Below are positions 1-55,989 of a DNA stretch of 64,000 nucleotides, one piece after another. Position 1 is the first letter of the stretch, and every line of letters begins with the position of its first letter. Both the position numbers and the translations under genes were made by a program. Location: UHGV virus genome UHGV-1366603; one strand, 5' to 3'. The DNA is from a virus. A model generated the notes under the pieces. It had not been told where the DNA came from. It saw only the letters and a list, made by a program, of their open reading frames with translations, and did no database searches.

Positions 1-1
1 A

Positions 2-187
2 CAGCAACAGAATGCTGAAACCAACATCGTGGATACCGTCTGCTGGAGCGATATCCTTACTAATGAAACCATGTCTCGTATTCGAGATATCTTTATTGAA
101 AATCTGGCATTAGTGAAAAGGGTGTGTAGTTCCGAGATTATTTATTTATCATCAAAACTTCAACCCGCTAAGACAAGCACCGTTTAA
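2..187 (+). CDS. 3' end of an upstream CDS (partial, start outside window)
   Basis: Open frame from the window edge to TAA at 185-187; no other support. Confidence 0.3.
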   Translation, partial: QQQNAETNIVDTVCWSDILTNETMSRIRDIFIENLALVKRVCSSEIIYLSSKLQPAKTSTV

Positions 188-204
188 CTTAAGGAGATTA
201 AAAC

Positions 205-693
205 ATGAATTTAAATCAAATTATCGCTTTGAAAAACTCAGACATCATTCATGAATTCCTCAACCATACCGACCGTGTACATGCCACGATCAGAAATAAA
301 CTCGCACCAATGGTCGTCGATACTCCCTGGATGGCTGGCGTTGCCAGCGACTACATCGAAAATAGTTACAGAGCCCGACTTATAACGAATCTGGATGATT
401 TCTTTGTTGGTTTCTTTGGCGGAATCACAAAATCATTTATCGATAGACGGTTATACGGAATCCGTATTGAAACATTACAATCGCTAATTAACGAATACCA
501 TAACGGTTTTATCCCAGCAATTGTACCGCCTTATGCAGAAGGTGAGTGGCGTCGTTTCTATAGTCAAATTTGGGGCAATGAAGCACACTCACACGGTATT
601 GTGGAAATCATTAGCTACGATCAAGGTATGCTCGCACTACACCTGTGGGAATGGCTAAAAGCTAACTATCCAAATTACGTCAAGATCGACTAA
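205..693 (+). CDS. hypothetical protein (162 aa)
   Basis: ATG preceded by AAGGAG RBS; hairpin terminator follows. Confidence 0.55.
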   Translation: MNLNQIIALKNSDIIHEFLNHTDRVHATIRNKLAPMVVDTPWMAGVASDYIENSYRARLITNLDDFFVGFFGGITKSFIDRRLYGIRIETLQSLINEYHNGFIPAIVPPYAEGEWRRFYSQIWGNEAHSHGIVEIISYDQGMLALHLWEWLKANYPNYVKID

Positions 694-699
694 TATACA

Positions 700-733
700 C
701 CCTAGCCTCGGCTAGGGTTACTTTATTTTAACC
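700..733 (+). terminator. intrinsic terminator hairpin (CCCTAGCC-TCG-GCTAGGG) plus T-rich tail
   Basis: Inverted repeat read directly, followed by TTACTTTATTTTA. Confidence 0.5.
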
Positions 734-751
734 ATTTTAGGAGTATATACC

Positions 752-1684
752 ATGTATTTGTACAAAAGTAAAAAAGTAAAAGGTATTAAAGACTGTCTTA
801 GACAAATGGGGAGTCAGCATCTAGAAAATGTCATGGAAGAAAACCAAACAAAAGAAAATCCTGTCTCGAAATGGATAAAAAAGAATCGTAACCATTTAAC
901 CAATTCCTTTATACCCTACGACACTGAGTTAGGTCTCAAAGATCCACGTTCCCTTCACGCACAAACGTTGGCAATCGGGTGGCTATATGGCGGGGTTTCC
1001 TTAATATCCAACCAAGCACTTAGAGAACTTGTTTTCGAGACTGAGATGCCCAGTAAATTCCCTGAAGAATGGTTGGACTTTATACCCGCATGGACTGTGG
1101 CAATCGACGTAGGTAAAGAGGATGAGACTTTCTTTCTCGGCTATCGAAAAAATGGGAAGAAAAGGTTTATTATAATCGCTACAAATACTGATTACGGGTT
1201 AACAGAAGGAGTTACCACAATTGCCACTTGTTCGTTAGAGCTTCGTAGTGTAGGAAACGGGCTTGTTGAAATTGATTATACAACTGGCGTACAGACCGAA
1301 GAAGAGAAGATGTTATGGTTATCTCTGGCCAAAGCCGCCACTTCGATGATATTTCTGTGCACGCTAATCCCGCCTAATTACAGGGAGTCTTTTAATGATA
1401 TTAAGTTCAGGGAAATCAAAAAGAACGGTAGTATTAGTTACGACGTTAAACCGCGAGAACGTGATGTTAAGGTTGATATCACACCAGGACAAGTAAAATA
1501 TCTAAAAGGATTTAACACCGACTTGAAAGCCATGCAGGGTATCAAACACGCCAAAGCTGCACATATTCGTCGTGCACACTGGCGTAGATATTGGGTCGGT
1601 CCAAGAGATGGGGAAAGGAAGAGAAAACTTTGCTGGATTCCACCGACGTTTGTCCGAGGCTACGTACCCCACACGCAAGACTAG
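752..1684 (+). CDS. hypothetical protein, paralog 1 of a tandem pair (310 aa)
   Basis: AGGAG RBS; C-terminus AAHIRRAHWRRYWVGP...WIPPTF closely matches the next gene; internal GW(L/Q)Y(G/A)G block also shared. Confidence 0.6.
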   Translation: MYLYKSKKVKGIKDCLRQMGSQHLENVMEENQTKENPVSKWIKKNRNHLTNSFIPYDTELGLKDPRSLHAQTLAIGWLYGGVSLISNQALRELVFETEMPSKFPEEWLDFIPAWTVAIDVGKEDETFFLGYRKNGKKRFIIIATNTDYGLTEGVTTIATCSLELRSVGNGLVEIDYTTGVQTEEEKMLWLSLAKAATSMIFLCTLIPPNYRESFNDIKFREIKKNGSISYDVKPRERDVKVDITPGQVKYLKGFNTDLKAMQGIKHAKAAHIRRAHWRRYWVGPRDGERKRKLCWIPPTFVRGYVPHTQD

Positions 1685-1694
1685 GAGAATTATA

Positions 1695-2579
1695 ATGTTA
1701 AGACGCAGAATTTATGGAGACACGCTTCGTCGTATTAGTGAAGCTATAGAGACTGCACACAAAGACTTGTTTGGTCTGAAAGAAGATCGGTTTCTAACGT
1801 TTGTCAGGGAACACAAGAGACAACTCCCCGTAACCTTTCTGCCCGTTAACGACCCAACGTACCGTGAGTTCGGCACCACCAAACAGGTGCCGTATTCTAT
1901 TCGCCAGTCGTTAGGTTTGGGTTGGCAATACGCAGGTATTGAAATTATCTCTGATAAAGAGCTGATGGGATTACTTGCAGACACAGAACGTTTAACGGAT
2001 ATTCCGTACGCGTGGATTGAAGCCATCCCTTCATTCACCTTTTCCGTGACTGTCAAGATTAACGAACTTCCTGCTACGCTCTTTATCGGTCGTCGTAAAT
2101 TCGAAGGTGAAGAAGTATTGTTCGTTTTACGATGGGTGGAGATAAATCAGCGGCACTGTTGGTCAACCAAGATTTATCGGTTCAACAGAAAGGCAGACGA
2201 CTTTGTTAGTTTAGAACCTTACTTTGCTAACGAGTCAAAGGACGAGGAACTTCTGGATGAGGTACATATCGGTTTATATCTTTCCTCGCGGGTGAAGAAA
2301 TCGGAACGCGAGCGACGGGAATACCGTGGTAGAACGACACGTTACGTACCTGATACAGAAATCCTCCCACGCAGAGAACCTGTCGTTGTTGACGTAAGTC
2401 CAGTACAACGCGAAGACTTAGAGAAGCAACGCAGAGAAGGCAGGAGAATCTGTTTAACGCCGCATCGCGCAGCGCACATACGCAGAGCACATTGGAAACG
2501 GGTCTGGTGTGGACCAATGACAGGGACACGCTGGCAGGAATGGCGTTGGATTGCACCCACCTTTATATCCGGTTTTTAG
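1695..2579 (+). CDS. hypothetical protein, paralog 2 of a tandem pair (294 aa)
   Basis: Start moved to in-frame ATG 1695 with AGGAG RBS just after the upstream stop; C-terminus AAHIRRAHWKRVWCGP...WIAPTF. Confidence 0.6.
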   Translation: MLRRRIYGDTLRRISEAIETAHKDLFGLKEDRFLTFVREHKRQLPVTFLPVNDPTYREFGTTKQVPYSIRQSLGLGWQYAGIEIISDKELMGLLADTERLTDIPYAWIEAIPSFTFSVTVKINELPATLFIGRRKFEGEEVLFVLRWVEINQRHCWSTKIYRFNRKADDFVSLEPYFANESKDEELLDEVHIGLYLSSRVKKSERERREYRGRTTRYVPDTEILPRREPVVVDVSPVQREDLEKQRREGRRICLTPHRAAHIRRAHWKRVWCGPMTGTRWQEWRWIAPTFISGF

Positions 2580-2596
2580 CGTGAAAATAAAGATTA

Positions 2597-2640
2597 CCCC
2601 TAGACCTTGTGGTCTAGGGGTAGCTTTTACTTATTATTTT
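2597..2640. terminator. bidirectional terminator hairpin between convergent genes
   Basis: Perfect 10-bp stem CCCCTAGACC-TTGT-GGTCTAGGGG with T-rich tracts on both sides. Confidence 0.6.
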
Positions 2641-3389
2641 TTGTTTGCCTTCAGCGCTTTCAGGCGTTCAGCCGTCACGTTCAGGCATTCAATCAATTCG
2701 TTCACTTGTTTCATGAACAAACCAAACAGTTCAACCCAATCGGATGCAAAGTCTAACATCGCTGTCAGTTCTTTTGCCACATTAGGATGGATGTTTTGTT
2801 CAGACAGAATCGTTGCAGAAGCTTTAATGGACTCGATGGATTTATCGATGTTCGTACGAAGTTTCTTCGTGATTTCAACGTTCAGTGCTTTTGCACGGTT
2901 AAACGCAATATCGATTTCCGTAGCACTGTGGTACGTTTTCTCAATCGGACGCTGGTCAATAACGTTGTTGGTGTAAGACTTAGCCAACTGGTTAACCAGG
3001 TCTTTCGGATTCACGTTACGTAACGGAATGTTAACGTTTTTATAACGGAAACCGATAGGTAATGACAGTACGCCCACATCATGTGTAAGGGCGGAAAGTT
3101 GCAACTCAACAGGTAAAAGGACACCGTCGTAGATCTTCTGTAATGAACTCCACACCGATTCTAAGCGGTTAATGTGATCCATTACGTAGGTATTGAAGCC
3201 TGGCGGTACAATAACCAACATGCCTGCAAAGTGTAAGAATTTTTCCTGTTGCATCCACTTGGAAACGTCTGACATGTCGTCGTAAGTGGTTAATGCAATC
3301 TCTTGTTGAGGGCCACTGAACCCTTTGGGTAAGATTGCAGACGCTTTAGCGGCAAAGCTAGTTAACGCTGCAAGTGGATTTACGTTCAT
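2634..3389 (-). CDS. hypothetical protein (251 aa)
   Basis: ATG with GAGG RBS on minus strand; long ORF. Confidence 0.55.
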   Translation of the reverse strand: MNVNPLAALTSFAAKASAILPKGFSGPQQEIALTTYDDMSDVSKWMQQEKFLHFAGMLVIVPPGFNTYVMDHINRLESVWSSLQKIYDGVLLPVELQLSALTHDVGVLSLPIGFRYKNVNIPLRNVNPKDLVNQLAKSYTNNVIDQRPIEKTYHSATEIDIAFNRAKALNVEITKKLRTNIDKSIESIKASATILSEQNIHPNVAKELTAMLDFASDWVELFGLFMKQVNELIECLNVTAERLKALKANKK

Positions 3390-3486
3390 TTAAAACCTCG
3401 GATTATAAGTCAGGGTTACATAGTAAAGTCTTTTTACAGTTCATCCTGAACTTATGACCGAGATTATCTCACAAAGGTAAAGCTCG

Positions 3487-3786
3487 ATGAAAATCAAATT
3501 ACTGACTCGAAACACCACGCCTCGTCTGGAACCGGAAATCTATCTTACCCCGGTGAAAAAAGACAAAGAAGGTAAGCCTATTCAAGTAGGTAAGATTCTT
3601 AGCGTGACTTCTTTACCTAACGGTAAGCGCGTGATGGAATTAGAAATCGACGAGCGCAACAAACGTCGTTTCGAGTCTATTGAGAACCCCTATCCTGAAA
3701 AATCGGAAGAAGTCACCGAGTGGGCAGAGACCTACTTTGAATTCTGGCACAAACGCCGTCTTCTTCTTCCGACCAAGAATCGTTAA
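3487..3786 (+). CDS. hypothetical protein (99 aa)
   Basis: ORF with AAAGG RBS. Confidence 0.45.
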   Translation: MKIKLLTRNTTPRLEPEIYLTPVKKDKEGKPIQVGKILSVTSLPNGKRVMELEIDERNKRRFESIENPYPEKSEEVTEWAETYFEFWHKRRLLLPTKNR

Positions 3787-3801
3787 TTATTGGAGCGCTA
3801 A

Positions 3802-5298
3802 ATGGCAGGCCCAACTAAGCAAGTTATCGGTGAAGTAATTCGTCCTCGTTTTAACGTTTATACCATCATGGACCACGCCTTAGGCAACTACGAAAGAGGC
3901 GAAGATGGTTTATACTACCTTAACGGTGGTTTTGCCCACATCATGGGTTTCGCGGGTCGTGGTAACACCTTCAAATCTACACTGTTGGATTTCTGTATCT
4001 TCCAAATCCTGCAACGCTATAAAGCAGAGTGGGGTTCGAAATACGATACCGAAGTGTCTGCTGCCCTCGATCGCTTAGAGACTGGTTATATTTCTGCCAT
4101 GCACGCCAACGGTATTGACGATGGAACTTCGGTACTGGAACTTATTCACGAAGGTCGTTATAACCTCGTTGGTTCTGACGTGATGCCAGGGGAACAGTAT
4201 TACAGTGACTATATTCGTGACGAAGTGGAAAAACGCTTCAAGCAGTATATGTCTGGTAAAACCCGTGTAACCCCGTTCCTTGACCCAGTTCGTCGTAAGC
4301 AAAAAGAAATCCTTGACCCGTGGCTGTATTCTATCGACTCCCTGTCTGAGTGGCACTCGTCTTCTCTGGAAGACAAGCACGCTAAAACGGATATCGGTGA
4401 TTCCGATCAGAACATTCTCAACGCCCACGACGCCTTACAGAAATCGAACATGATGAGCCGTTGGCCGTCTGCGTTTGCCCGTGGTGGTTTCTACATGGGC
4501 TTTGTTGCACAGATGGCGGACGACTCCGGTAAGGCGATGGCTGGCGGTCGTCAAGGGCAGAAAGCAAACGCGAAACTGCTGGACGATGCGAACGACGATC
4601 TCAAATTCGCAGGGATTCCTCGTCGTCAGTTAAGCTTCCTGACTAACTCGTTTATTGTTGCGACAAAATCAGGCGAGCTGAAAAAAGACCAGAGTTATAA
4701 TGCCCAGACCGGTGTTAACGAAGAACTTTACCCAACTGCACGTTCAAAAGCCATGAACGCGTCGGTTAACGACCTGAAAGTTATCACCTTTACGCAATAC
4801 CGTGCTAAAGGCGGTCACACGGGTGTGAAGTTCCAGATGATCTTCTCACAAGAGATGGGTCTACTGTACCACCTGAGCCTGTGGCATTACCTGAGTGACA
4901 CCCTGAAAAAATCCGAATTTGGGTTTACGTCCAGCGGTAGCGGTGGTTCCATTAAAGAACTCCAGATTCTTCCTGGTGTTAAATTCCAGCGTACGACGAT
5001 TCGTGACATGATTGACGATAACCCGAAACTGCGTCGGGCATTAGAAATCACGGCTGCGATTGCGTACATGCAAAACAACTACCATCGTTTAGAGGTTAAA
5101 TACCACCTCACGATGGAAGAAATCTACAAACTCATTGATGAAAAATGGGATTGGAATGAGATTCTGGAAAACACCGTAGAATACTGGATGTTTAAAGACC
5201 AGGAAACGAAAGGTGGTAAACGCACGTTAACTGCCCGTACGATTCTGGGTATGGCCGTGGACGGCCTGGAACCGAAGTTCCTCACCAAAAAGAAATAA
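3802..5298 (+). CDS. putative UvsX/RecA-like recombinase
   Basis: Walker-A-like GFAGRGNTFKS resembles UvsX AGPSKSFKS; IDSL Walker-B-like segment; later KAMAGG segment; GGAG RBS. Confidence 0.45.
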   Translation: MAGPTKQVIGEVIRPRFNVYTIMDHALGNYERGEDGLYYLNGGFAHIMGFAGRGNTFKSTLLDFCIFQILQRYKAEWGSKYDTEVSAALDRLETGYISAMHANGIDDGTSVLELIHEGRYNLVGSDVMPGEQYYSDYIRDEVEKRFKQYMSGKTRVTPFLDPVRRKQKEILDPWLYSIDSLSEWHSSSLEDKHAKTDIGDSDQNILNAHDALQKSNMMSRWPSAFARGGFYMGFVAQMADDSGKAMAGGRQGQKANAKLLDDANDDLKFAGIPRRQLSFLTNSFIVATKSGELKKDQSYNAQTGVNEELYPTARSKAMNASVNDLKVITFTQYRAKGGHTGVKFQMIFSQEMGLLYHLSLWHYLSDTLKKSEFGFTSSGSGGSIKELQILPGVKFQRTTIRDMIDDNPKLRRALEITAAIAYMQNNYHRLEVKYHLTMEEIYKLIDEKWDWNEILENTVEYWMFKDQETKGGKRTLTARTILGMAVDGLEPKFLTKKK

Positions 5299-5305
5299 AA
5301 GCGTT

Positions 5306-5328
5306 AGGGTAGGGGATTACCCTACCCT
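5306..5328 (+). other. stable hairpin without U-tract just upstream of the next RBS
   Basis: AGGGTAGGG-GATTA-CCCTACCCT, 9-bp perfect stem. Confidence 0.4.
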
Positions 5329-5343
5329 AGCTAAGGAGTCGTT

Positions 5344-5643
5344 ATGCGTTATCAAACGGAGATTGTGGAACGCTTAAGCGAAGGTTTAGCCAGCGTCAGT
5401 CTGGAAACAGCAGCGGCATTTCGTGAGACTTTCGCTACTTTCTTTCCCGATCGTGAATCTTTTTGTTTAAAGGTCGGTGAATATTATTCCAAGTTACTCG
5501 AACACTACGGTTATCCGCCGGTGAAATTCGACGTACCTGAAAACACCGACGACATCAGTTATTGGATTGAAACCCTCGAAGCAGGGACACTTTCCAACTT
5601 GCGTAAGGCGGTAGAAAATGAAACTCGATCCAGCGCGGCGTAA
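5344..5643 (+). CDS. hypothetical protein (99 aa)
   Basis: AAGGAG RBS. Confidence 0.45.
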   Translation: MRYQTEIVERLSEGLASVSLETAAAFRETFATFFPDRESFCLKVGEYYSKLLEHYGYPPVKFDVPENTDDISYWIETLEAGTLSNLRKAVENETRSSAA

Positions 5644-6286
5644 AAAAGCGGAAGCTTACGCCTTACAAATCTTAAGCCTGGTTGACCCCTCTGGGATTAA
5701 CGCGGAAGCAGCAAAGAAAGCCTTTGCTCGAATGACGGACGAACAGTTTAATCGTCTTCGTGAAGGGCTACCGATTTACAACCCGGTCGGTAGTAAAGTT
5801 AAAATCGACCACATGCGAAACGTTAAGCTTTGTCGTGTTTTAGGTTTGAACCTGGAACAACGGTTGTGGTTAACTGAGCCGAAAACGGGTGTTTTCCATC
5901 GTACTCGCTATCCCCATCTGGTGCTACGTTTACCTGCGCGTCGTCAAACACAGATGCAAGAAAAGAAAATGGCGGTAGCGAAGAACGACAAAGTTCGTGA
6001 TAAACTCTCCGGTCAGGTTGTGGGTCCTTCTAAGGCATCTGGCGTCTCTTTCCCAGAAGCGTACATCATGTACTCGGATGGTCACGACTGGACACTGAAA
6101 GAGTTTCTGTGGGCGCGTGGGGGTAACGAAGCGTTACAACGTGCGTTCTATCAATCGTTACGTCAAACCGGTAAGGGACGTATTGACCTACCGGGGGCAG
6201 AACGTACCAGTTCGAAAGCAACACGTACCTGGTCTGCGTATCTGAAAGCGATGCACATTGGTAACAACATAGGCCATCCGTCATGA
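5618..6286 (+). CDS. hypothetical protein (222 aa)
   Basis: ORF overlapping upstream gene end; start uncertain. Confidence 0.45.
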   Translation: MKLDPARRKKAEAYALQILSLVDPSGINAEAAKKAFARMTDEQFNRLREGLPIYNPVGSKVKIDHMRNVKLCRVLGLNLEQRLWLTEPKTGVFHRTRYPHLVLRLPARRQTQMQEKKMAVAKNDKVRDKLSGQVVGPSKASGVSFPEAYIMYSDGHDWTLKEFLWARGGNEALQRAFYQSLRQTGKGRIDLPGAERTSSKATRTWSAYLKAMHIGNNIGHPS

Positions 6287-7005
6287 GATTTTCTCGACGT
6301 TTTTTGATTGATATCGATGCGTTGTTTGACACCCGAATCGGTTGGGTCAAAGCCATCAAACCTGAAAGATTGGAAATTATGGATTACGACGTTTATCGTC
6401 GTCGTTTTACGGAGGAATGGGCGACTGTCTTGGGGTTTGAGAATTGGGAAGAGGAGTATCAGAAACGCGATAAACGCGCGTTGATGAATGCGGAACCCAC
6501 CGAACTGTTGTTGACGATGAAGAACGAGTTCGAATGTATGTTACTCGAAATCGAGATGCATTCGCCTATCGAAAAACCGACGCTGACGATCAACACCTGG
6601 CCGTATACTGATCTTACTGACCAAGAAATGCAAACGTTCTTGCAGATGTTCCGTATCTATTACGATATGGTGCAGGTTGAGTTAGTGTCGTGGCCGCATT
6701 CGGAGCTCACACCAGGTCGTTTAGCGACGGCTTGGGATTGTTGGATAATGTACGATTGGTTCGCTTGGATTGAACTCAATGCGAAACATCTGAAAAAACC
6801 TATCCCTAGCTTTACCATTACGCACCCTGCCCTGCTAACACCGGAGCTTACAAAAGAGACGGTAGAGCAGCTTAAACGCGATGGTGTAAATCCGTTCAAG
6901 GAACACATCCGGTTTATGGCAGAGTGGGTCGGTGTCGACCCACGTGATTCTGCGTTATTTAGTCTTGCTCGTCCGAAGAAGGACGCGCAAACGCCGCAGT
7001 CATAA
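6283..7005 (+). CDS. hypothetical protein (240 aa)
   Basis: ATGA start/stop overlap with upstream gene. Confidence 0.5.
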   Translation: MRFSRRFLIDIDALFDTRIGWVKAIKPERLEIMDYDVYRRRFTEEWATVLGFENWEEEYQKRDKRALMNAEPTELLLTMKNEFECMLLEIEMHSPIEKPTLTINTWPYTDLTDQEMQTFLQMFRIYYDMVQVELVSWPHSELTPGRLATAWDCWIMYDWFAWIELNAKHLKKPIPSFTITHPALLTPELTKETVEQLKRDGVNPFKEHIRFMAEWVGVDPRDSALFSLARPKKDAQTPQS

Positions 7006-19245: not shown

Positions 19246-22200
19246 TTAACCTGCACGTCTAACGTTAAGCTGTCGTGCTGGCTGTTCAACGGACATTTGT
19301 CGTGATGCTGAACCTGCTGGTGCCATAGGTTGAGCCGATGCGGTGTTTTGTACCGGTTGTGGACGTTGCTTAAGGATCGTGACAATCTCTTTGAGATAAC
19401 CCGCCGATTCTTTCGCAACAGCCAACTGCTGAACACTAATCGGATCGCCACTGCTAAGTGTAGGTCCGTTTTGTGCATCAGAAGTAACCGCAGGTGCCGG
19501 TTTACTCGTCGCTGCTGCGCGCTGCACAGCACCTTCTTTCACCTTCTCGACATCTTCTTCAGGCAACCCTTCATTTCTGGCTCCAGTTGCAACAGTCTCC
19601 CCAATCATAGAGGCGTCACCGCCTGCACTACTACCGCCAGGTGACGGTACTGCTGGACCACCACTGGTTGCAGCTTTGACGTTGTCCGCACCCATTGCAC
19701 CTTTCTCTGCTAACGCTTCATCACGACGCGCAGCATTGGACGCAGGCAAGTTATCCGTCGCTCCAGAAATTGATGGATCGTTAGCTGCCCCTGCTGCTAC
19801 CGCCGGAGAGGAGGCAACCGCAGGCGTTAGCCCTTTCACCATGTCTTTCGTTGAAGCTGGGTTAGCCGCAATTTCGTTTGTCGCCACAGCACCCATACGG
19901 CGGTTCAGTTCATTAATAACTTCACCAACAGTACGAATACGAACAATCTGCTTGCCGCGCATTTCGTAGAAGACCCCCTTATTACCACTAAGGATTTGAG
20001 GAGTAATGCCTTCTGCTTTGTCGGCTGGCATGTTCGGATTCTGCCGCCATGCATTAAGGAACTTCTTACCACCGCCTGGGCCCAAGAAGTGATACAGATA
20101 CGCAACAGCCGGAGGCGGTTCTACACCACCTAAGTCTTTCTGCGCCTGCATGATATTGTCACGAATAAACTGTACCCCGAGGATGGTATTTGCCCACGGG
20201 TCGTACTGGTTTACTTGCGGTATACCGTACCGACGAGAGTACCCTTTCATCATTCCAGACCACGTTTTGTCAATGAACTGGAACAACCCTGCTGCTGACG
20301 CACCTGGGTTCTTGACACCATATTTGAAATCAGATTCGGCTTTCGCCATCGCAATCGCGACCGCAGGCGGAACACCTAAGGTATTTGCGACATCCGCAAT
20401 CATCGCTTTAACGCCTTCTACGTTAGGTGACTTACCATCACCCAGTTTGCTGATTGGATACTTCTCAGCCAAGGTTTTGTAATCACCTTCTTTGACGTCC
20501 CCGAGTTTAATCCCGGATTGGCCCGTAGAGAACTTCGCGTAATTGCTAATACCCATCTCACCCACAACTTGAGACAGATCACCCGGTGTACCGTAAGACG
20601 ACCCACCGTTTGGCAAGTACCCATCCTTAGACGCTGTACCCCAATCAACAACACCTTTGAAACGATCTTTGGTGTCTTCGTCGGTTTGGTACATTCTCGT
20701 CGCACGATCGGCTTTCTGCCACTTCGCACGTTTACCTGCTGCGGGTGTAGACCGCAGGGTATCACGAACAGCCAGGTCAGGTTCTTTGGACAGTTCTTTC
20801 AGGTTGGCAAGTTCAGTAGCAACAGAACCTGCGTCGGTGTTTGCTTCTTCACCCAGTGGGTTGAACGGAATCTCCCACACGGACTGACGAATACCACCCT
20901 TCATGTTGTAAGCGCCACGAATCATCAACGCCAATTCGTACATGAACCCACCGGATACTTTCAGTTCGGTAGGGTCTGCTTGCGGAATGTAACGTTTCAG
21001 ACCAACGACGTAGGTCATATACGCCGGTAAGAAACGGTTGTAGAACCAGTTCTTACAACGCTCCTCTTTAGGACCACCTATCAGGTCAGGCGAGATAACC
21101 GCAATGGCTTCTTTCCAGTTGCCTTTATAGGTACAGTTCTTCACATCAATGTCTTTCAACACGTTCTTCTCTAACAGTGTGAAAAGATTACGCGTTGTTT
21201 GGTTGATAGTAACCGCACCGTAGGTTTTCCACCTGACCGATTCCAGGTCTTCCAAATCACTTTTCTTCGGTAAGGAATGCCAGTCAACTTGGATTTGAAC
21301 CTGTTCAGTTCCGTCTTCCCAACCTTCGACCTTCGCAACTTTCTCGTTACGTTCAGCATCTGCATTCGCCAGTACCTGACTGGTTTCAGCAACGGACGCA
21401 ACTTTGTGGCCTTCGACAGCATCACGCATACCTGAACGTTGTTTCCGTTTGTCGTCAGTACGCATGTTGATTGACCGCCACACACGTTCCTGTGCTTCGA
21501 CAACCTCTTCCCCTGACAAGAACTCTGCCGGAGTAAAGGTAACGAAATCCCACGCTTTAGAGAACCAACCCTGGTTAACTTTACGCGGGTCAGTCAATGA
21601 ACGGAATTCCGCAGAATCTTTACCCATCTTCATTTTGTTGTAGAGGGTAATCATATCCGCTTTCGACACTTTCTTCGGATCACCAACATCTGCCAAAGCG
21701 ATGTCGTTATCCATCGACTTCAGTGCTGAAATCCAGCGGAGGTAAATCGGTGCGAAACGTTGTAGCATAAACGCAGTAAATGCTAACATCTCACCACGTT
21801 CTTCCAAGTTTACACCGAACCCTTCTGCGAGTTTCTTCACGTCTTCGGAAGACAAGCCACGTAATTGTGCTTCACCCCCTTCGGTATACGAGACGTAAGG
21901 TTTCAAAGCGTCTTCTAAATAACGGGCTTTCATACCGTCTTCAGAAGACCACTGGTCGTAGTCACGGAAACCGTATTGTGCCAGACGCATATAGTCGAGG
22001 TACTGTGCTTTCACACGGGTAGCGCATTTATACGCCCAATAACCCAGACCAGCGGCAGTCGCACCGATCGCAATTGCAGGCCAACCCACCGCAGCCACTA
22101 CCGTAGATGCAGCCGAGGCTACCGCAGTCACTGCCGGTACCGCTAAACGTTGTACAGCAAACTTACCAACGTTCCACGCTGCTTTACCGAGGAACCCGGT

Positions 22201-25200
22201 AGGTTTAAAAATACCCCACTTCGCAACTTTGCCCAGTATCGAACCCACCGTACCTAAGATACTCACGATTGGTCCTACTAACGGTAAGTCTTTGAGGAAG
22301 TCCATCACCCCGCCTTTACGTCCTTTCTGCTCAGCGGTTTTCTTGGCTTTCTCTTCTTCCTTAGAACGTCTACGACGACGGAAGAATTGGAAGTAGTCAC
22401 GTTTTTCATCGTTGGCTGCCGGTTTGTTACGTTGTCCGAACTTACTGAACATCGTACGAATCAGGCCATCAGGTGCACCAGCACGTTCCGCAGAGTCACG
22501 CATGGTGTTAAACCAGGACATTTCCTGGAGGTTAACCATCCGGTTTAAACGTTCCAATAATGCTGAACCAACACTCTTCGCTTTCTGCTTACCTTTGTTG
22601 ATAACGCGTCCTGCGGTATCCGTTGCGGTTTCGAAATCCTCCTTCGCTGCGTTAAACACGCGTGTTGGAGAAACCTTACCACGAGCGTACAAGTGTTGAC
22701 GGTAAAACTCCGCAACGTCATCATCACGACCCGCTAAACGCGACTCCGCCCGATAACGTGTGGCAATATCGTAGCGTGGGTCACGGAAGCTATCTACTGT
22801 TTCACCAAAGCGCCCACGGAAACGGTCAAACCACCCTTTACCCGCAGCGCCCCAACGAGACAGTCTATCGCCAACGCCATGACGGAAACGTGAGAATCGG
22901 TCACGTTGTCTGCCTCGCCAATCCCGGAAATTCTGGAAGTAATCTTTAAATCCGTCGCGGAAATCCTTAACACGGTTAAGCATCCCTTTGATAGATTTCG
23001 AGCCAACGTTTTTCTCCAGTTGCTCCGTCCAGGATTCATCTTCAGGCTCACCGTCTAAACGACGGTTAAGGAGTTTATAGATACGAATCAGGATATGGTT
23101 GGTCTTACGGCCATTCGACCAAGAGAACATGCTGAAGCCACCGCCAGAACCACCTTCCTTACGATTCTGCCACCACCGGGTAAGCGGGTTGTCGGTCGCT
23201 AACTCTTTGAATTTCTCAAAGCCACGTTTTGCATTGTTCCACAAACGAGCAGGCATTCCGGTTACGCGAGAAATCATGCTTTGTAAACGTGTTTTCTCAC
23301 TCCCCTCAGGAATCTCATTAAGCCACTCACGCGCTTTCTCGAAGATAGACGCTGCTCTTGGCGAGATTAGACCAATCAGTTTCTTCGGTAAGTTAACAGC
23401 TTTGTTTACTGCTGTACCTGCTTTACCGGAGATATACTGGAACAGGGCCTGGAGTTTACCGCCTTTATAGAAGCGCAGTTTACCCGCAGCCGCTAAGTCT
23501 GCCGCTGCGAGAATCAAGTTCCCGGCTTCGTCAACAATATCACGACCCAGCTTAATGTCGTCTAACGAGCGGAGTTGTACCAGCTTGTTGGTTTTAGGGT
23601 CAGCCTGATAATACTCACCTGCCTCTAAACGGCTTCCTTGTAAAACAACATTGCCTTTCTCGTCGTAGATGTCCCGAACACCAAGAACACCTTTCCCGAA
23701 GGCGACCGCCGAATTCCAGCCTGTGGACAACGTACCAGTAACTAAACCTTTCAGTCGTTCAAAAACACCTGGACCGTCAGATGGCCCACCGGAGAATTTC
23801 CCACGAATAAAACTGCCCAGTGACTGTAAACGCCCTTTCCCTCTCAGGAACATGTTCTTCGCAAAACGACCCGCGCCCGTACCGGTGTCCCAAAGTACGC
23901 CCGCCCAACGACGGAACAGCCCACTTTCACCAAGCACGATGCGTTTACGCTTGCGTTTGTTACCGGTGCTACCTGCATCTTCAGAAGCGTCACCCTCGTC
24001 ACCGTCACGACCACCACCTAAGCTGGCCAGCAGGATACCTTCCTCATCCATGTTCTTAACATGTTTCAGAATTTCCTGCACGGTGTTGGATTCGGACTTA
24101 TTACGAATAGCATCAACGATTCTATCAAACTGTTGCTCTAACCCTGCGGTGGTATCAGGACGTTCGCTTAGCAGTTCAACAAAGTTGGTAGATTTTTCAC
24201 CGTAGAGGACAGCAGCAAGTTGTCGTGCCGACAGTCCACGGCCACCGCGACCGCCTTTACCTTTAACGGTGTCAATTGTCGACTCGTCACCGGTTACGGA
24301 GGCGTCTACCCCTAAACGACGTAAATAGTCACCTAGCGCAGAACCGTTTTTCAGTTTGCGCTGGATTTCTTGTTCACGCGTTAACGAACGACCGGAACGG
24401 GTTTTCCCCATGGCCAGGTCGTTATACAGCGTATACGGATCGTTAATGTCTTTATCTACATCAAACCGATCGTTCTTCGCATCGTACTTAAAGATACCTG
24501 CATCACGTAACGCATTCTCACCGTAGATAATTGAAGCTTCGTCTACCGTGTTTTGACGTGCACGAATTGTTGACTGAATGGCCGAAATCTTACCAGCGAT
24601 TTCGTTGCTAAGTTCGTGATGACCGCCTGTCAGTTCTGAAGACCGTGCTTCTAAGACCGCCTGAATCGCTTCTACCGCGTTTGCATTCATGTAACGATAC
24701 ATGTGCATCGGGTCTTTCAGCAGACTGCCTACGTCGAACGCCTTACCTTCAGACGCACGTGATTCGATATAGTCCGCCAGCGCTTGGCGAGTTTTCGAAT
24801 CCAGAGTTTTGTCTTTGTCGATAAAGTCAACGGTTTCGTTAATGTACTGCTGTAAACGCTTCCGCTGTTCATCGTTCGCAACCGCTTTACGGACACGGTT
24901 GCCGACAACTTTACGGTCAATCATCCCACGCGTGGTTAAATCGTACACCTGGTCGTGGTGTTCGCCGTACCCGCGACGAATAGATTTGTTAATCTCCGTC
25001 AGCAAAGTCGGGATGACTTCCGTGATGCTAAGATACGCTTTACGGTCGAACTTCGCAGCGGCGGATAACGCTTCTGCTGAACGTTCTTCTAAAGCTAATC
25101 CCTCACGACGCAGCGGTGTCACTAACCCCATCTCGTGCATTAAACGGAAGACGGTGGCCAGTGGGCCGTCTATCTCACCAGCAATCGCCGAGTTAGAGAT

Positions 25201-26382
25201 AGAAGATAAGTTACCGAACCCGTAGCGTGCCAACTGAAGCCGTTTCATGACTTCTGGGTTCTTTTCTAACTCACTGCGTGTCCAGTTCTGTAAACGTTCT
25301 ACCTGAGGTTGTAAGAACCGTTTTGCTAACCAACTACCGGCAAACCCTGCGACTTTACCTCGGGAATTCGTACGACGACGTTCTGGCGACAGTGTAGAAC
25401 TGTCTTCCATGCCGAAGTCGTCTTCCTGACTCATTGACAGAACTTGTTCTAATATCCCGCGTCCGTCGCTGAAGATATTCGAAATCTTTTTCTTCGCGTT
25501 CTCACGAATCTGATCAATAAAGTTATCCGCGTAACGCAAGGGGTTCATCCATTCGGCAGCTTTACGTTTTACGTTAGCCCAACGAACTTCAGAGAATTCC
25601 TCTTTTGCGTAGTCCGGCAACGCGGTGTTTTTAACAATCGCTTCAAGTGCCGGGGTGTTACGGCTAAACTCATCCTGTTTAAGTTTAGCAATATCTTGCA
25701 ACGCGAATAACGTACGGTATTGCAGCTCTAGCTGTTTACGCTGAACGTTAAGCATTACCCCGCGACTTAAACTGGTCGTCAGGTTAACGTCTTTCGCAAT
25801 ACCGATAACCGTCTGGAACAGCGCATCGGACTTCATGTCCTTGATGGTGTCACGAAGACGGTCTTCTACCATTCCTTCCTGAACTTCACGTTGTTGTTCA
25901 GGTGTTTGTGGCGTACCTGCAAAAACAGAGTCTAACTCACGATCCATTAACGCTTGTTTAGGATCGTAATTCCCGTAATCGTACTGGTCGCTTTTCGCCC
26001 ACTTGTCGATCTTACGGGTTACACTGTCAGGCAAATACCGTTTTAGGGTTGGGCCTAACTGACGAGCTTGTGCCTTCACCACACGGGAGGTCTTTTCAAT
26101 CTCGTCTTTCGTATGGGCCAGAATGTCTTGACCTGCGGCTTTGACGTTCTTATAACCTTCATAAGCGTCAGTCGCCGGTTTTGGCATTCCTTTTAAAATG
26201 ACCTGATCACGTTTATTTTCGGGCCAGATAGTCGACAACGCCGACTTACGGGCAGCACGAAATGTGTCCATGACCGGGTTACGCGATTGGTCTTGTTGAC
26301 GAGGGGGCTCATCAAAATCGTCCCAGTCGTCCATGTTATCAAGATCGATTTCATCGAAATCGTCTTTACCTTTTTTAGCCAT
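19246..26382 (-). CDS. giant virion-type protein with lytic transglycosylase (SLT) domain (2,378 aa)
   Basis: SLT signature AESDFKYG...AAGLFQFIDKTW and AYLYHFLGPGG near residue ~2000; acidic N-terminus; hydrophobic segments; Ala/Pro/Ser-rich C-terminal tail; size and domain placement recall phiKZ gp181. Confidence 0.7.
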   Translation of the reverse strand: MAKKGKDDFDEIDLDNMDDWDDFDEPPRQQDQSRNPVMDTFRAARKSALSTIWPENKRDQVILKGMPKPATDAYEGYKNVKAAGQDILAHTKDEIEKTSRVVKAQARQLGPTLKRYLPDSVTRKIDKWAKSDQYDYGNYDPKQALMDRELDSVFAGTPQTPEQQREVQEGMVEDRLRDTIKDMKSDALFQTVIGIAKDVNLTTSLSRGVMLNVQRKQLELQYRTLFALQDIAKLKQDEFSRNTPALEAIVKNTALPDYAKEEFSEVRWANVKRKAAEWMNPLRYADNFIDQIRENAKKKISNIFSDGRGILEQVLSMSQEDDFGMEDSSTLSPERRRTNSRGKVAGFAGSWLAKRFLQPQVERLQNWTRSELEKNPEVMKRLQLARYGFGNLSSISNSAIAGEIDGPLATVFRLMHEMGLVTPLRREGLALEERSAEALSAAAKFDRKAYLSITEVIPTLLTEINKSIRRGYGEHHDQVYDLTTRGMIDRKVVGNRVRKAVANDEQRKRLQQYINETVDFIDKDKTLDSKTRQALADYIESRASEGKAFDVGSLLKDPMHMYRYMNANAVEAIQAVLEARSSELTGGHHELSNEIAGKISAIQSTIRARQNTVDEASIIYGENALRDAGIFKYDAKNDRFDVDKDINDPYTLYNDLAMGKTRSGRSLTREQEIQRKLKNGSALGDYLRRLGVDASVTGDESTIDTVKGKGGRGGRGLSARQLAAVLYGEKSTNFVELLSERPDTTAGLEQQFDRIVDAIRNKSESNTVQEILKHVKNMDEEGILLASLGGGRDGDEGDASEDAGSTGNKRKRKRIVLGESGLFRRWAGVLWDTGTGAGRFAKNMFLRGKGRLQSLGSFIRGKFSGGPSDGPGVFERLKGLVTGTLSTGWNSAVAFGKGVLGVRDIYDEKGNVVLQGSRLEAGEYYQADPKTNKLVQLRSLDDIKLGRDIVDEAGNLILAAADLAAAGKLRFYKGGKLQALFQYISGKAGTAVNKAVNLPKKLIGLISPRAASIFEKAREWLNEIPEGSEKTRLQSMISRVTGMPARLWNNAKRGFEKFKELATDNPLTRWWQNRKEGGSGGGFSMFSWSNGRKTNHILIRIYKLLNRRLDGEPEDESWTEQLEKNVGSKSIKGMLNRVKDFRDGFKDYFQNFRDWRGRQRDRFSRFRHGVGDRLSRWGAAGKGWFDRFRGRFGETVDSFRDPRYDIATRYRAESRLAGRDDDVAEFYRQHLYARGKVSPTRVFNAAKEDFETATDTAGRVINKGKQKAKSVGSALLERLNRMVNLQEMSWFNTMRDSAERAGAPDGLIRTMFSKFGQRNKPAANDEKRDYFQFFRRRRRSKEEEKAKKTAEQKGRKGGVMDFLKDLPLVGPIVSILGTVGSILGKVAKWGIFKPTGFLGKAAWNVGKFAVQRLAVPAVTAVASAASTVVAAVGWPAIAIGATAAGLGYWAYKCATRVKAQYLDYMRLAQYGFRDYDQWSSEDGMKARYLEDALKPYVSYTEGGEAQLRGLSSEDVKKLAEGFGVNLEERGEMLAFTAFMLQRFAPIYLRWISALKSMDNDIALADVGDPKKVSKADMITLYNKMKMGKDSAEFRSLTDPRKVNQGWFSKAWDFVTFTPAEFLSGEEVVEAQERVWRSINMRTDDKRKQRSGMRDAVEGHKVASVAETSQVLANADAERNEKVAKVEGWEDGTEQVQIQVDWHSLPKKSDLEDLESVRWKTYGAVTINQTTRNLFTLLEKNVLKDIDVKNCTYKGNWKEAIAVISPDLIGGPKEERCKNWFYNRFLPAYMTYVVGLKRYIPQADPTELKVSGGFMYELALMIRGAYNMKGGIRQSVWEIPFNPLGEEANTDAGSVATELANLKELSKEPDLAVRDTLRSTPAAGKRAKWQKADRATRMYQTDEDTKDRFKGVVDWGTASKDGYLPNGGSSYGTPGDLSQVVGEMGISNYAKFSTGQSGIKLGDVKEGDYKTLAEKYPISKLGDGKSPNVEGVKAMIADVANTLGVPPAVAIAMAKAESDFKYGVKNPGASAAGLFQFIDKTWSGMMKGYSRRYGIPQVNQYDPWANTILGVQFIRDNIMQAQKDLGGVEPPPAVAYLYHFLGPGGGKKFLNAWRQNPNMPADKAEGITPQILSGNKGVFYEMRGKQIVRIRTVGEVINELNRRMGAVATNEIAANPASTKDMVKGLTPAVASSPAVAAGAANDPSISGATDNLPASNAARRDEALAEKGAMGADNVKAATSGGPAVPSPGGSSAGGDASMIGETVATGARNEGLPEEDVEKVKEGAVQRAAATSKPAPAVTSDAQNGPTLSSGDPISVQQLAVAKESAGYLKEIVTILKQRPQPVQNTASAQPMAPAGSASRQMSVEQPARQLNVRRAG

Positions 26383-55800: not shown

Positions 55801-55809
55801 AGTATTTAG

Positions 55810-55882
55810 ACCATTGAAGTTAGAGGAATTAACACCCGACTAATAATCGGTTATTTCGCAGGTTCGAATCCTGCCATTGGTC
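55810..55882 (+). tRNA. tRNA-like gene, anticodon uncertain
   Basis: Canonical T-arm GCAGG-TTCGAAT-CCTGC; acceptor stem with one mismatch; D-stem GTTA/TAAC; 73 nt; anticodon loop register ambiguous. Confidence 0.4.
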
Positions 55883-55989
55883 GCCCAGATTAGAACAATC
55901 GAACAAGAGTTACAAACTCGTCAGCCTTCAACTGAGCGTCGGTTGTTCTGATAACTTCTGCTCTTGCTCACGGGTAGAAAGCTCCTTAA

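Follow-up and report, generated by a model that had tools for sequence, protein, structure and literature searches.

A tandem pair of AcrVA2-like genes at a variable locus of an enterobacterial jumbo phage: candidate target-specific silencers

AcrVA2 binds the N-terminal LSKT peptide of Cas12a. As reported by Marino et al. (bioRxiv 10.1101/2022.11.29.518452), the protein silences its target through a translation-dependent loss of cas12a mRNA, independently of promoter and codons. The substitutions H286A, R288A and H291A abolish down-regulation of mRNA and protein and leave binding intact, and W79A and D89A cause a moderate or partial loss of function. The same work describes about 1,800 AcrVA2 orthologs, FinQ included, on plasmids and megaphages and mostly without Cas12a, and proposes targets other than Cas12a for thousands of homologs acting alike. 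FinQ inhibits transfer of the F plasmid, and was first described as lowering F tra mRNA levels (Marino et al.). AcrVA2-like proteins had been seen earlier in huge phages (Al-Shayeb et al. 2020, PMC7162821). Here these systems are compared with two adjacent genes, called A and B, found in a 64,000-nucleotide (nt) stretch of the virus genome UHGV-1366603; the whole stretch is referred to as the window. By analogy with AcrVA2, the two products are probably target-specific silencers, carried as a cassette in a variable genomic slot and acting through translation-coupled mRNA loss on targets other than Cas12a. Both genes are intact and constrained, and keep the residues needed for AcrVA2 activity. 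The C-terminal effector end stays constant, and the remainder differs from one paralog to the other as well as among the alleles of A.

752-1684, plus strand: gene A, 310 amino acids (aa), AcrVA2-like (Pfam PF26125, PHROG 6160)
1695-2579, plus strand: gene B, 294 aa, AcrVA2-like paralog

Gene A begins with ATG, and an AGGAG ribosome-binding site lies 7 nt 5' of the start. Gene B has its own AGGAG, which overlaps the TAG stop of A, and is separated from A by a gap of 10 nt. A GTG start for B at position 1572 was rejected, because it would create a 113-nt overlap with A and because the 294-aa form is used in every annotated or called relative; the ATG at 1695 is preceded by AGGAG.

In an earlier sequence-only reading of the window the pair could not be assigned to a family. 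A described family does accommodate it: as profile comparisons show, A and B are diverged members of the AcrVA2-like family PF26125, for which a structure has been solved (7CI1), and no structural-protein family is matched. Precomputed Pfam labels in the gene table place PF26125 on both genes. Compared alone to the PDB by phmmer, A has AcrVA2 as sole match (7ci1_A, E 8.9e-5), over the block HIRR.HW..YW.G...W.P..FV and a weak collinear N-terminal stretch. B alone has no match in the PDB, and is recognised by the family hidden Markov model (HMM) with E 1.5e-41. A profile made of 15 jumbo-phage sequences finds AcrVA2 along two collinear stretches (E 6.3e-10), and is aligned by hhalign to FinQ of plasmid R621a over 202 columns (probability 98.7%, E 3.2e-16). 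An exhaustive profile search collected 3,010 clusters (50% identity) at E<=1e-3. The family profile consists of 148 representatives, drawn from the 150 best listed of these clusters, and matches in the PDB only AcrVA2, along chain residues 6-319 of 323 (E 1.1e-47). Among PHROGs the sole match is phrog_6160, whose function is not annotated. No match to Pfam-A was found by hmmscan for A, B or any of the 148 members; the copy used evidently is one without PF26125, and the result thus carries no weight against membership. A and B had no match in NCBIfam and no meaningful one in PADLOC; neither there nor in Pfam-A did they match an enzyme family, be it nuclease, HEPN or another. In blastn comparisons of the pair with phage records only a 97-nt match was obtained, the DNA being too diverged outside its own lineage.

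The residues on which AcrVA2 activity depends can be located in both proteins.

1562-1579, plus strand: codons of the HxRxxH motif of gene A (H271-I-R273-R-A-H276), equivalent to AcrVA2 H286/R288/H291
2475-2492, plus strand: codons of the HxRxxH motif of gene B (H261-I-R263-R-A-H266), predicted effector motif

When A, B, AcrVA2 and FinQ are aligned by hmmalign, AcrVA2 H286/R288/H291 (native numbering; the PDB chain numbering is native plus one) fall on H271/R273/H276 of A and on H261/R263/H266 of B. AcrVA2 W79 corresponds to W77 of each protein, at a position conserved at 90% or more, and D89 to D87 of B. The two motif histidines are invariant in the 148 family members, and the arginine is conserved in at least 90%; all the positions aligned here belong to the invariant or nearly invariant ones of the family. 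HxRxxH is located within the last 80 residues in 153 of 155 representatives. What had been singled out from the letters alone was a basic C-terminal motif. The tails are basic, the isoelectric points (pI) of the last 50 aa being 11.3 in A and 12.0 in B; the motif is more than a basic block, since it corresponds to the HxRxxH element. The block AAHIRRAHW(R/K)R.W.GP is found exactly in both proteins. Of the block given as W.W.I(P/A)PTF, the two share WI(P/A)PTF (KLCWIPPTF in A, EWRWIAPTF in B), and the extra W.W is present in B only.

These C-termini could also be taken to mean that A and B share the AcrVA2 fold and work by another mechanism, either as sequence-specific nucleic-acid-binding regulators or nucleases that would act on transcripts or DNA of phage or host without recognising a nascent peptide, or as an A-B heterodimer directed to one target. 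The strongly basic last 50 residues fit a nucleic-acid-binding role, a nuclease-type site could be built around the pair of invariant histidines, the effect first ascribed to FinQ was on the level of tra mRNAs, and co-transcription of A and B would favour a complex. The sole mechanistic data on the family, however, show dependence on the amino acid sequence of the target and on its translation, and no nuclease, HEPN or other enzyme family has been detected. An obligate heterodimer is unlikely because most relatives are single-copy, as are 65 of the 80 best IMG/VR loci and the phages sharing the slot. Taken as a whole, such a mechanism appears improbable.

A and B align by BLASTP over about 300 columns with 24% identity (87.4 bits, E 2e-24); the best score of A against 100 shuffled versions of B is 25.4 bits. 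The similarity is full-length, neither of low complexity nor limited to a short stretch, and the tandem paralogous pair proposed in the sequence-only reading is borne out. The low overall identity, and nothing else, could suggest that the resemblance is due to chance or to low complexity, or that one of the copies is a decaying pseudogene. Against chance stand the E value, compared to the shuffled maximum, and the matches of A and B, each taken alone, to the family HMM (3e-53 and 1.5e-41). Against decay, both genes are intact and keep all invariant family residues, purifying selection is strong in B and in the C-terminal part of A (ratio of nonsynonymous to synonymous rates, dN/dS, of 0.02), and the pair is retained in several independent genomes. 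Chance and decay are refuted by these results, and retain virtually no probability.

Conservation between A and B is unevenly distributed. Identity is 23% over residues 1-60, 37% over 61-115, 14% over 116-225, 22% over 226-262 and 54% over 263-310, the latter corresponding to the last 48 residues. The internal block GW(L/Q)Y(G/A)G...IS, already remarked in the sequence-only reading, falls in the segment 61-115. The least conserved segment is also the one that varies most among alleles of A.

1097-1426, plus strand: hypervariable middle of gene A (residues 116-225), proposed target-recognition region

At least three types of allele can be distinguished for gene A, one found in the window (P0001), one represented by P0002 and by the Enterobacter ludwigii record NZ_CP134650.1 (L011), and one by P0003. 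The alleles are about 70% identical over residues 1-115, 48-53% over 116-225 and 97-100% over 226-310. The B protein is 97-99% identical throughout the lineage. At the DNA level, L011 and the window are 95-100% identical over most of the interval 1400-6680. Identity drops to 53-86% in the interval 640-1400, with a trough at 1100-1400, and is 53-64% at the codons of A residues 116-225, against a backbone of about 98%. The gene preceding A (205-693) is replaced or diverged in L011, L016 and L022, the replacement being complete in L011, and homology resumes only at window positions 1-157; the variable patch therefore starts before gene A, at about 158, and runs to about 1400. Nei-Gojobori estimates of the synonymous rate (dS) and of dN/dS, for the window compared to L011, are as follows.

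A residues 1-115: dS 1.01, dN/dS 0.18
A residues 116-225: dS 1.27, dN/dS 0.33
A residues 226-310: dS 0.42, dN/dS 0.02
Gene B: dS 0.14, dN/dS 0.02
Neighbouring genes: dS 0.02-0.21, dN/dS from about 0 to 0.02
99-aa neighbour gene: dN/dS 0.28, from one change of each kind

Positive selection on A was considered and rejected on these values (dN/dS 0.18-0.33, dS saturated). With dN/dS below 1 and saturated dS, the variable part of A is an old allele acquired by recombination, and not the product of a burst of point mutations. The A alleles do not follow the phage backbone. In the E. coli 'plasmid' NZ_CP173450.1 (L019), recombination has taken place within gene A, at residues 184-231. In two IMG/VR genomes of 220-225 kb (L023, L025) the backbone is about 81% identical to the window at the nucleotide level and the A protein 90-91% identical, while in L011 the backbone is about 98% identical and the A protein only 70%. 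The closer resemblance of A in the more distant phages points to horizontal exchange of A alleles between lineages. A supposedly different second gene in L017 was rejected, being a shorter call of B, 97% identical.

In the mechanism proposed, the N-terminal and middle domains of each protein would bind, at the ribosome, a short nascent peptide belonging to a single specific target. Loss of the target's mRNA would then be triggered by the conserved C-terminal HxRxxH module, and the target would not be made. Sharing only the effector end, A and B would provide two specificities and hit two targets, probably proteins that serve in host defence or belong to rival mobile elements. Since B is nearly invariant, its target is probably conserved; since the recognition part of A has been repeatedly exchanged by recombination, the target of A is probably variable or contested. 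A ribosome-coupled, cytoplasmic mechanism would suit a phage whose mRNAs share with those of the host the cytoplasm for translation. A narrower version of the proposal can be put forward tentatively: A and B may be differently programmed, nascent-peptide-directed silencers of two enterobacterial defence or rival proteins, and the swapped segment of A (about residues 1-225, chiefly 116-225) may be the specificity module of the family.

Some observations weigh against silencing by A and B. FinQ has historically been described as acting on the transcription of F transfer genes, and the mechanism may therefore not be uniform in the family. At the position of AcrVA2 D89, the window A has N87; other A alleles (P0002, P0003, L011) carry D at position 87. 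The variable part of A has dN/dS below 1 and saturated dS, and positive selection is not demonstrated. AlphaFold2 models of A and B are poor (predicted local distance difference test, pLDDT, 55 and 51), the alignments used having 13 sequences only because the word-indexed protein search returned few homologs (3, 2, 9), and Foldseek comparisons made with these models did not recover AcrVA2. In the same low-confidence models, helices are predicted at the N-terminus, a beta-sheet in the middle domain and four strands at the C-terminus, an order that would fit the published three-domain description of AcrVA2.

Homology to AcrVA2 and retention of the effector motif could indicate that A, B or both are genuine anti-CRISPRs directed at Cas12a. 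The observed hosts are nevertheless E. coli, Enterobacter, Salmonella and Erwinia, in which type V-A systems are not known to be typical. In the recognition region A and B are only 12-13% identical to AcrVA2, and they also differ there from each other. No other acr-like match was found in the window, so that the pair does not show the acr/aca association of type V-A anti-CRISPRs, and PADLOC gave no match. Most orthologs occur without Cas12a (Marino et al.). In large Pseudomonas phages the phage nucleus already blocks degradation of phage DNA by CRISPR-Cas (PMC7162821), and the relatives of the window phage are phiKZ-like. The hosts, the unconserved recognition region and the rarity of Cas12a alongside family members make Cas12a an unlikely target. 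Cas12a is almost certainly not what A and B act upon, and there is very little chance that either is an anti-CRISPR of this kind.

Silencing could be aimed by the same mechanism at another class of targets, A and B serving to shut down genes of conjugative plasmids in the same cell or of superinfecting phages, and not host defence genes. FinQ, a clear homolog, inhibits F-plasmid transfer, and near-identical copies of the phage are on record as circular 'plasmids', one in E. coli 98232 and one in Enterobacter ludwigii 51A:C. Together with the isolate records, these suggest long-term carriage as a plasmid-like episome of about 220 kb, a setting in which competition would matter. On the other hand, the strictly lytic relatives Asesino, EC001 and SaP7 carry a copy in the same slot, and the 'plasmid' records could stem from carrier-state contamination of cultures and not from stable maintenance. 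Competition of the FinQ type is a serious alternative as to the class of target, though we regard it as rather unlikely. The records of the phage as a plasmid suggest a carrier, pseudolysogenic or plasmid-like maintenance state. The element is not a conjugative plasmid, the copy in PLSDB being typed as non-mobilizable with no replicon type listed.

Circular 'plasmid' records of about 222 kb share 97-98% nucleotide identity with the window phage; one (L019) comes from an E. coli isolate of human urine and one (L011) from a gull isolate of Enterobacter ludwigii. The phage is also found in other isolate assemblies (L012 and L015; GCA_007152965.1, GCA_917061725.1) and in many sequencing runs. The exact A protein is present in 75 blocks of the collection, which comprises assemblies and runs.

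The gene pair is delimited by two hairpins.

699-718, plus strand: terminator-like hairpin, ACCCTAGCC-tcgg-GGCTAGGGT plus T-run; folding free energy (dG) -18.2 kcal/mol, z -2.9
2594-2623, no single strand: bidirectional intrinsic-terminator hairpin, common to B and to the convergent gene 2634-3389

The former terminates the operon that precedes the cassette, and forms the left boundary of the latter. The second hairpin is G+C-rich, has a stem of 12-13 base pairs and T-runs on both strands, and reaches dG -27.5 kcal/mol (z -5.6) on one strand and -25.3 kcal/mol (z -6.1) on the other; the strong bidirectional terminator reported in the sequence-only reading at the end of the pair is thus confirmed. 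There is no terminator between A and B, and with hairpins on either side the two genes look like a self-contained transcription unit. Relatives hosting the cassette have two flanking hairpins, which are nearly identical in Asesino, and phages with an empty slot have a single one. The unit therefore looks like a gene-plus-terminator module placed behind an existing terminator. Related hairpins are found in relatives at 3834-3860 and 4834-4862 (L001), at about 4244-4272 (L004) and at about 3958-3983 (L005). Matches to sigma-70-like promoters are depleted in window 1-4000, where only one, inside gene A, was found, versus 7.6 +/- 3.0 in shuffled sequences. Phages of the phiKZ type transcribe their genes with their own RNA polymerases, and the depletion is consistent with transcription by phage-encoded enzymes.

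The number of family members in the slot differs among related phages.

0 copies: SPN3US, Stratton/phiEaH2 (species Erskinevirus EaH2)
1 copy: Asesino gp235, EC001 MGA_211, SaP7, ChrisDB gp236, pEa_SNUABM_4
2 copies: the lineage of the window, several independent genomes

Because EC001 and SaP7 are classed in the SPN3US species, the slot features a true presence/absence polymorphism. Copy-number variation across related phages, which the sequence-only reading had indicated as worth profiling, is thus observed. The same reading had assigned the pair to an accessory region with a tie to host range or defence. The varying slot supports the former, and the counter-defence role of AcrVA2 and the conflict of FinQ with another mobile element support a tie to defence; nothing suggests a role in adsorption. 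Alexandravirus phages and Klebsiella phage FBKp24 have one family copy each, in other neighbourhoods. In a neighbour-joining tree made without bootstrap, the A and B clades group with each other, with weak support, within the clade formed by the syntenic genes of jumbo phages; an old duplication in tandem at this site would agree with the topology, which falls short of proving it. Two family members within 4 kb were found in 15 of the 80 best IMG/VR loci, one in the other 65. The 15 paired loci belong to three lineages: that of the window, L082 and the L084 group. L082, an unrelated phage contig, has two full-length AcrVA2-like open reading frames (ORFs) about 1 kb apart, at 1226-2308 and 3305-4345. 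In L084, L088-L091, L093, L094, L099 and L100, which are near-identical, a full-length ORF (3206-4288) is accompanied by a partial one (5244-5597). The presence of two AcrVA2-like ORFs in unrelated contigs indicates that pairing recurs in the family.

The window derives from a phiKZ/SPN3US-like jumbo phage of Enterobacteriaceae, and encodes beta subunits of a multisubunit RNA polymerase, a tail sheath, virion proteins, a thymidylate synthase and a UvsX-like recombinase. The pair is flanked by a gene encoding 162 aa (205-693) and by the convergent gene encoding 251 aa (2634-3389), followed by the 99-aa gene and by uvsX. Matches of the neighbours are to PHROG 4682 and PHROG 10750, both of no annotated function, and to the UvsX-like recombinase; the 162-aa gene has no match in PHROGs or PADLOC. 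A six-frame hmmsearch of the 64-kb window finds A and B only, and no third family copy. Elsewhere in the window, an ORF of 2,378 aa on the minus strand (19246-26382) matches the tail-fibre family phrog_3201 and has a C-terminal transglycosylase-like region (phrog_4067), and a tRNA-Ile with the unusual anticodon AAT is predicted by ARAGORN on the plus strand (55809-55885).

The family, and its presence in very large phages, are already known, and A and B, which belong to it, are members of a described family and not of a new one. The new details are the tandem pair, the slot occupied by 0, 1 or 2 copies, and the allele swapping in the recognition part of A. The locus leaves the published picture of the family as it is, but lends itself to tests in E. 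coli and Enterobacter, having two co-expressed paralogs with the same effector end. The three or more natural A alleles found in near-identical genomes, and the sister phages with 0, 1 or 2 copies, are ready comparisons for the study of targets and specificity. If the proposal is true, natural A chimeras could serve to decode, and to re-engineer, peptide-specific mRNA silencing in bacteria. The family assignment also corrects the 'hypothetical protein' labels found in many jumbo-phage and 'plasmid' records.

Among the known systems, the AcrVA2-like genes of huge phages and megaphages resemble A and B in residing in large phages whose host usually lacks Cas12a (PMC7162821; Marino et al. Fig. 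4). The lineage of the window, the tandem pair, the 0/1/2 slot and the swapping of A alleles are not described in the available portions of Al-Shayeb et al. and Marino et al. AcrVA2 itself, encoded by a Moraxella bovoculi prophage (7CI1/7CI2), is similar to A and B in size (about 300-320 aa), is collinear with them over the full length by means of the family profile, and shares the W79 equivalent and HxRxxH. A and B are, in contrast, only 12-13% identical to AcrVA2 in structural alignments and have an unconserved recognition region. They form a tandem of two diverged genes, reside in a jumbo phage of lytic type that infects Enterobacteriaceae and not in a Moraxella prophage, are not located beside acrVA1 or other acr/aca genes, and are very unlikely to target Cas12a. 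FinQ, encoded by the IncI plasmids R621a and R62, belongs to the same family, is found in Enterobacteriaceae as well, and has the block HIRRGHW...YWTG...W.PP. It lowers mRNA levels of another mobile element, its known target being the expression of F transfer genes. Unlike A and B, FinQ is plasmid-borne and single-copy, is found beside the IncI trb/exc genes, and has a diverged N-terminal part. The single-copy homologs of jumbo phages infecting Erwinia, Escherichia and Salmonella (Asesino gp235, EC001 MGA_211, SaP7, ChrisDB gp236, pEa_SNUABM_4) are annotated as hypothetical and are 24-30% identical to A or B. They share with the pair the family, the motif, the type of hairpin and the slot itself, which has on one side the gene preceding the pair and on the other the convergent 251-aa gene, located ahead of the UvsX-like recombinase.

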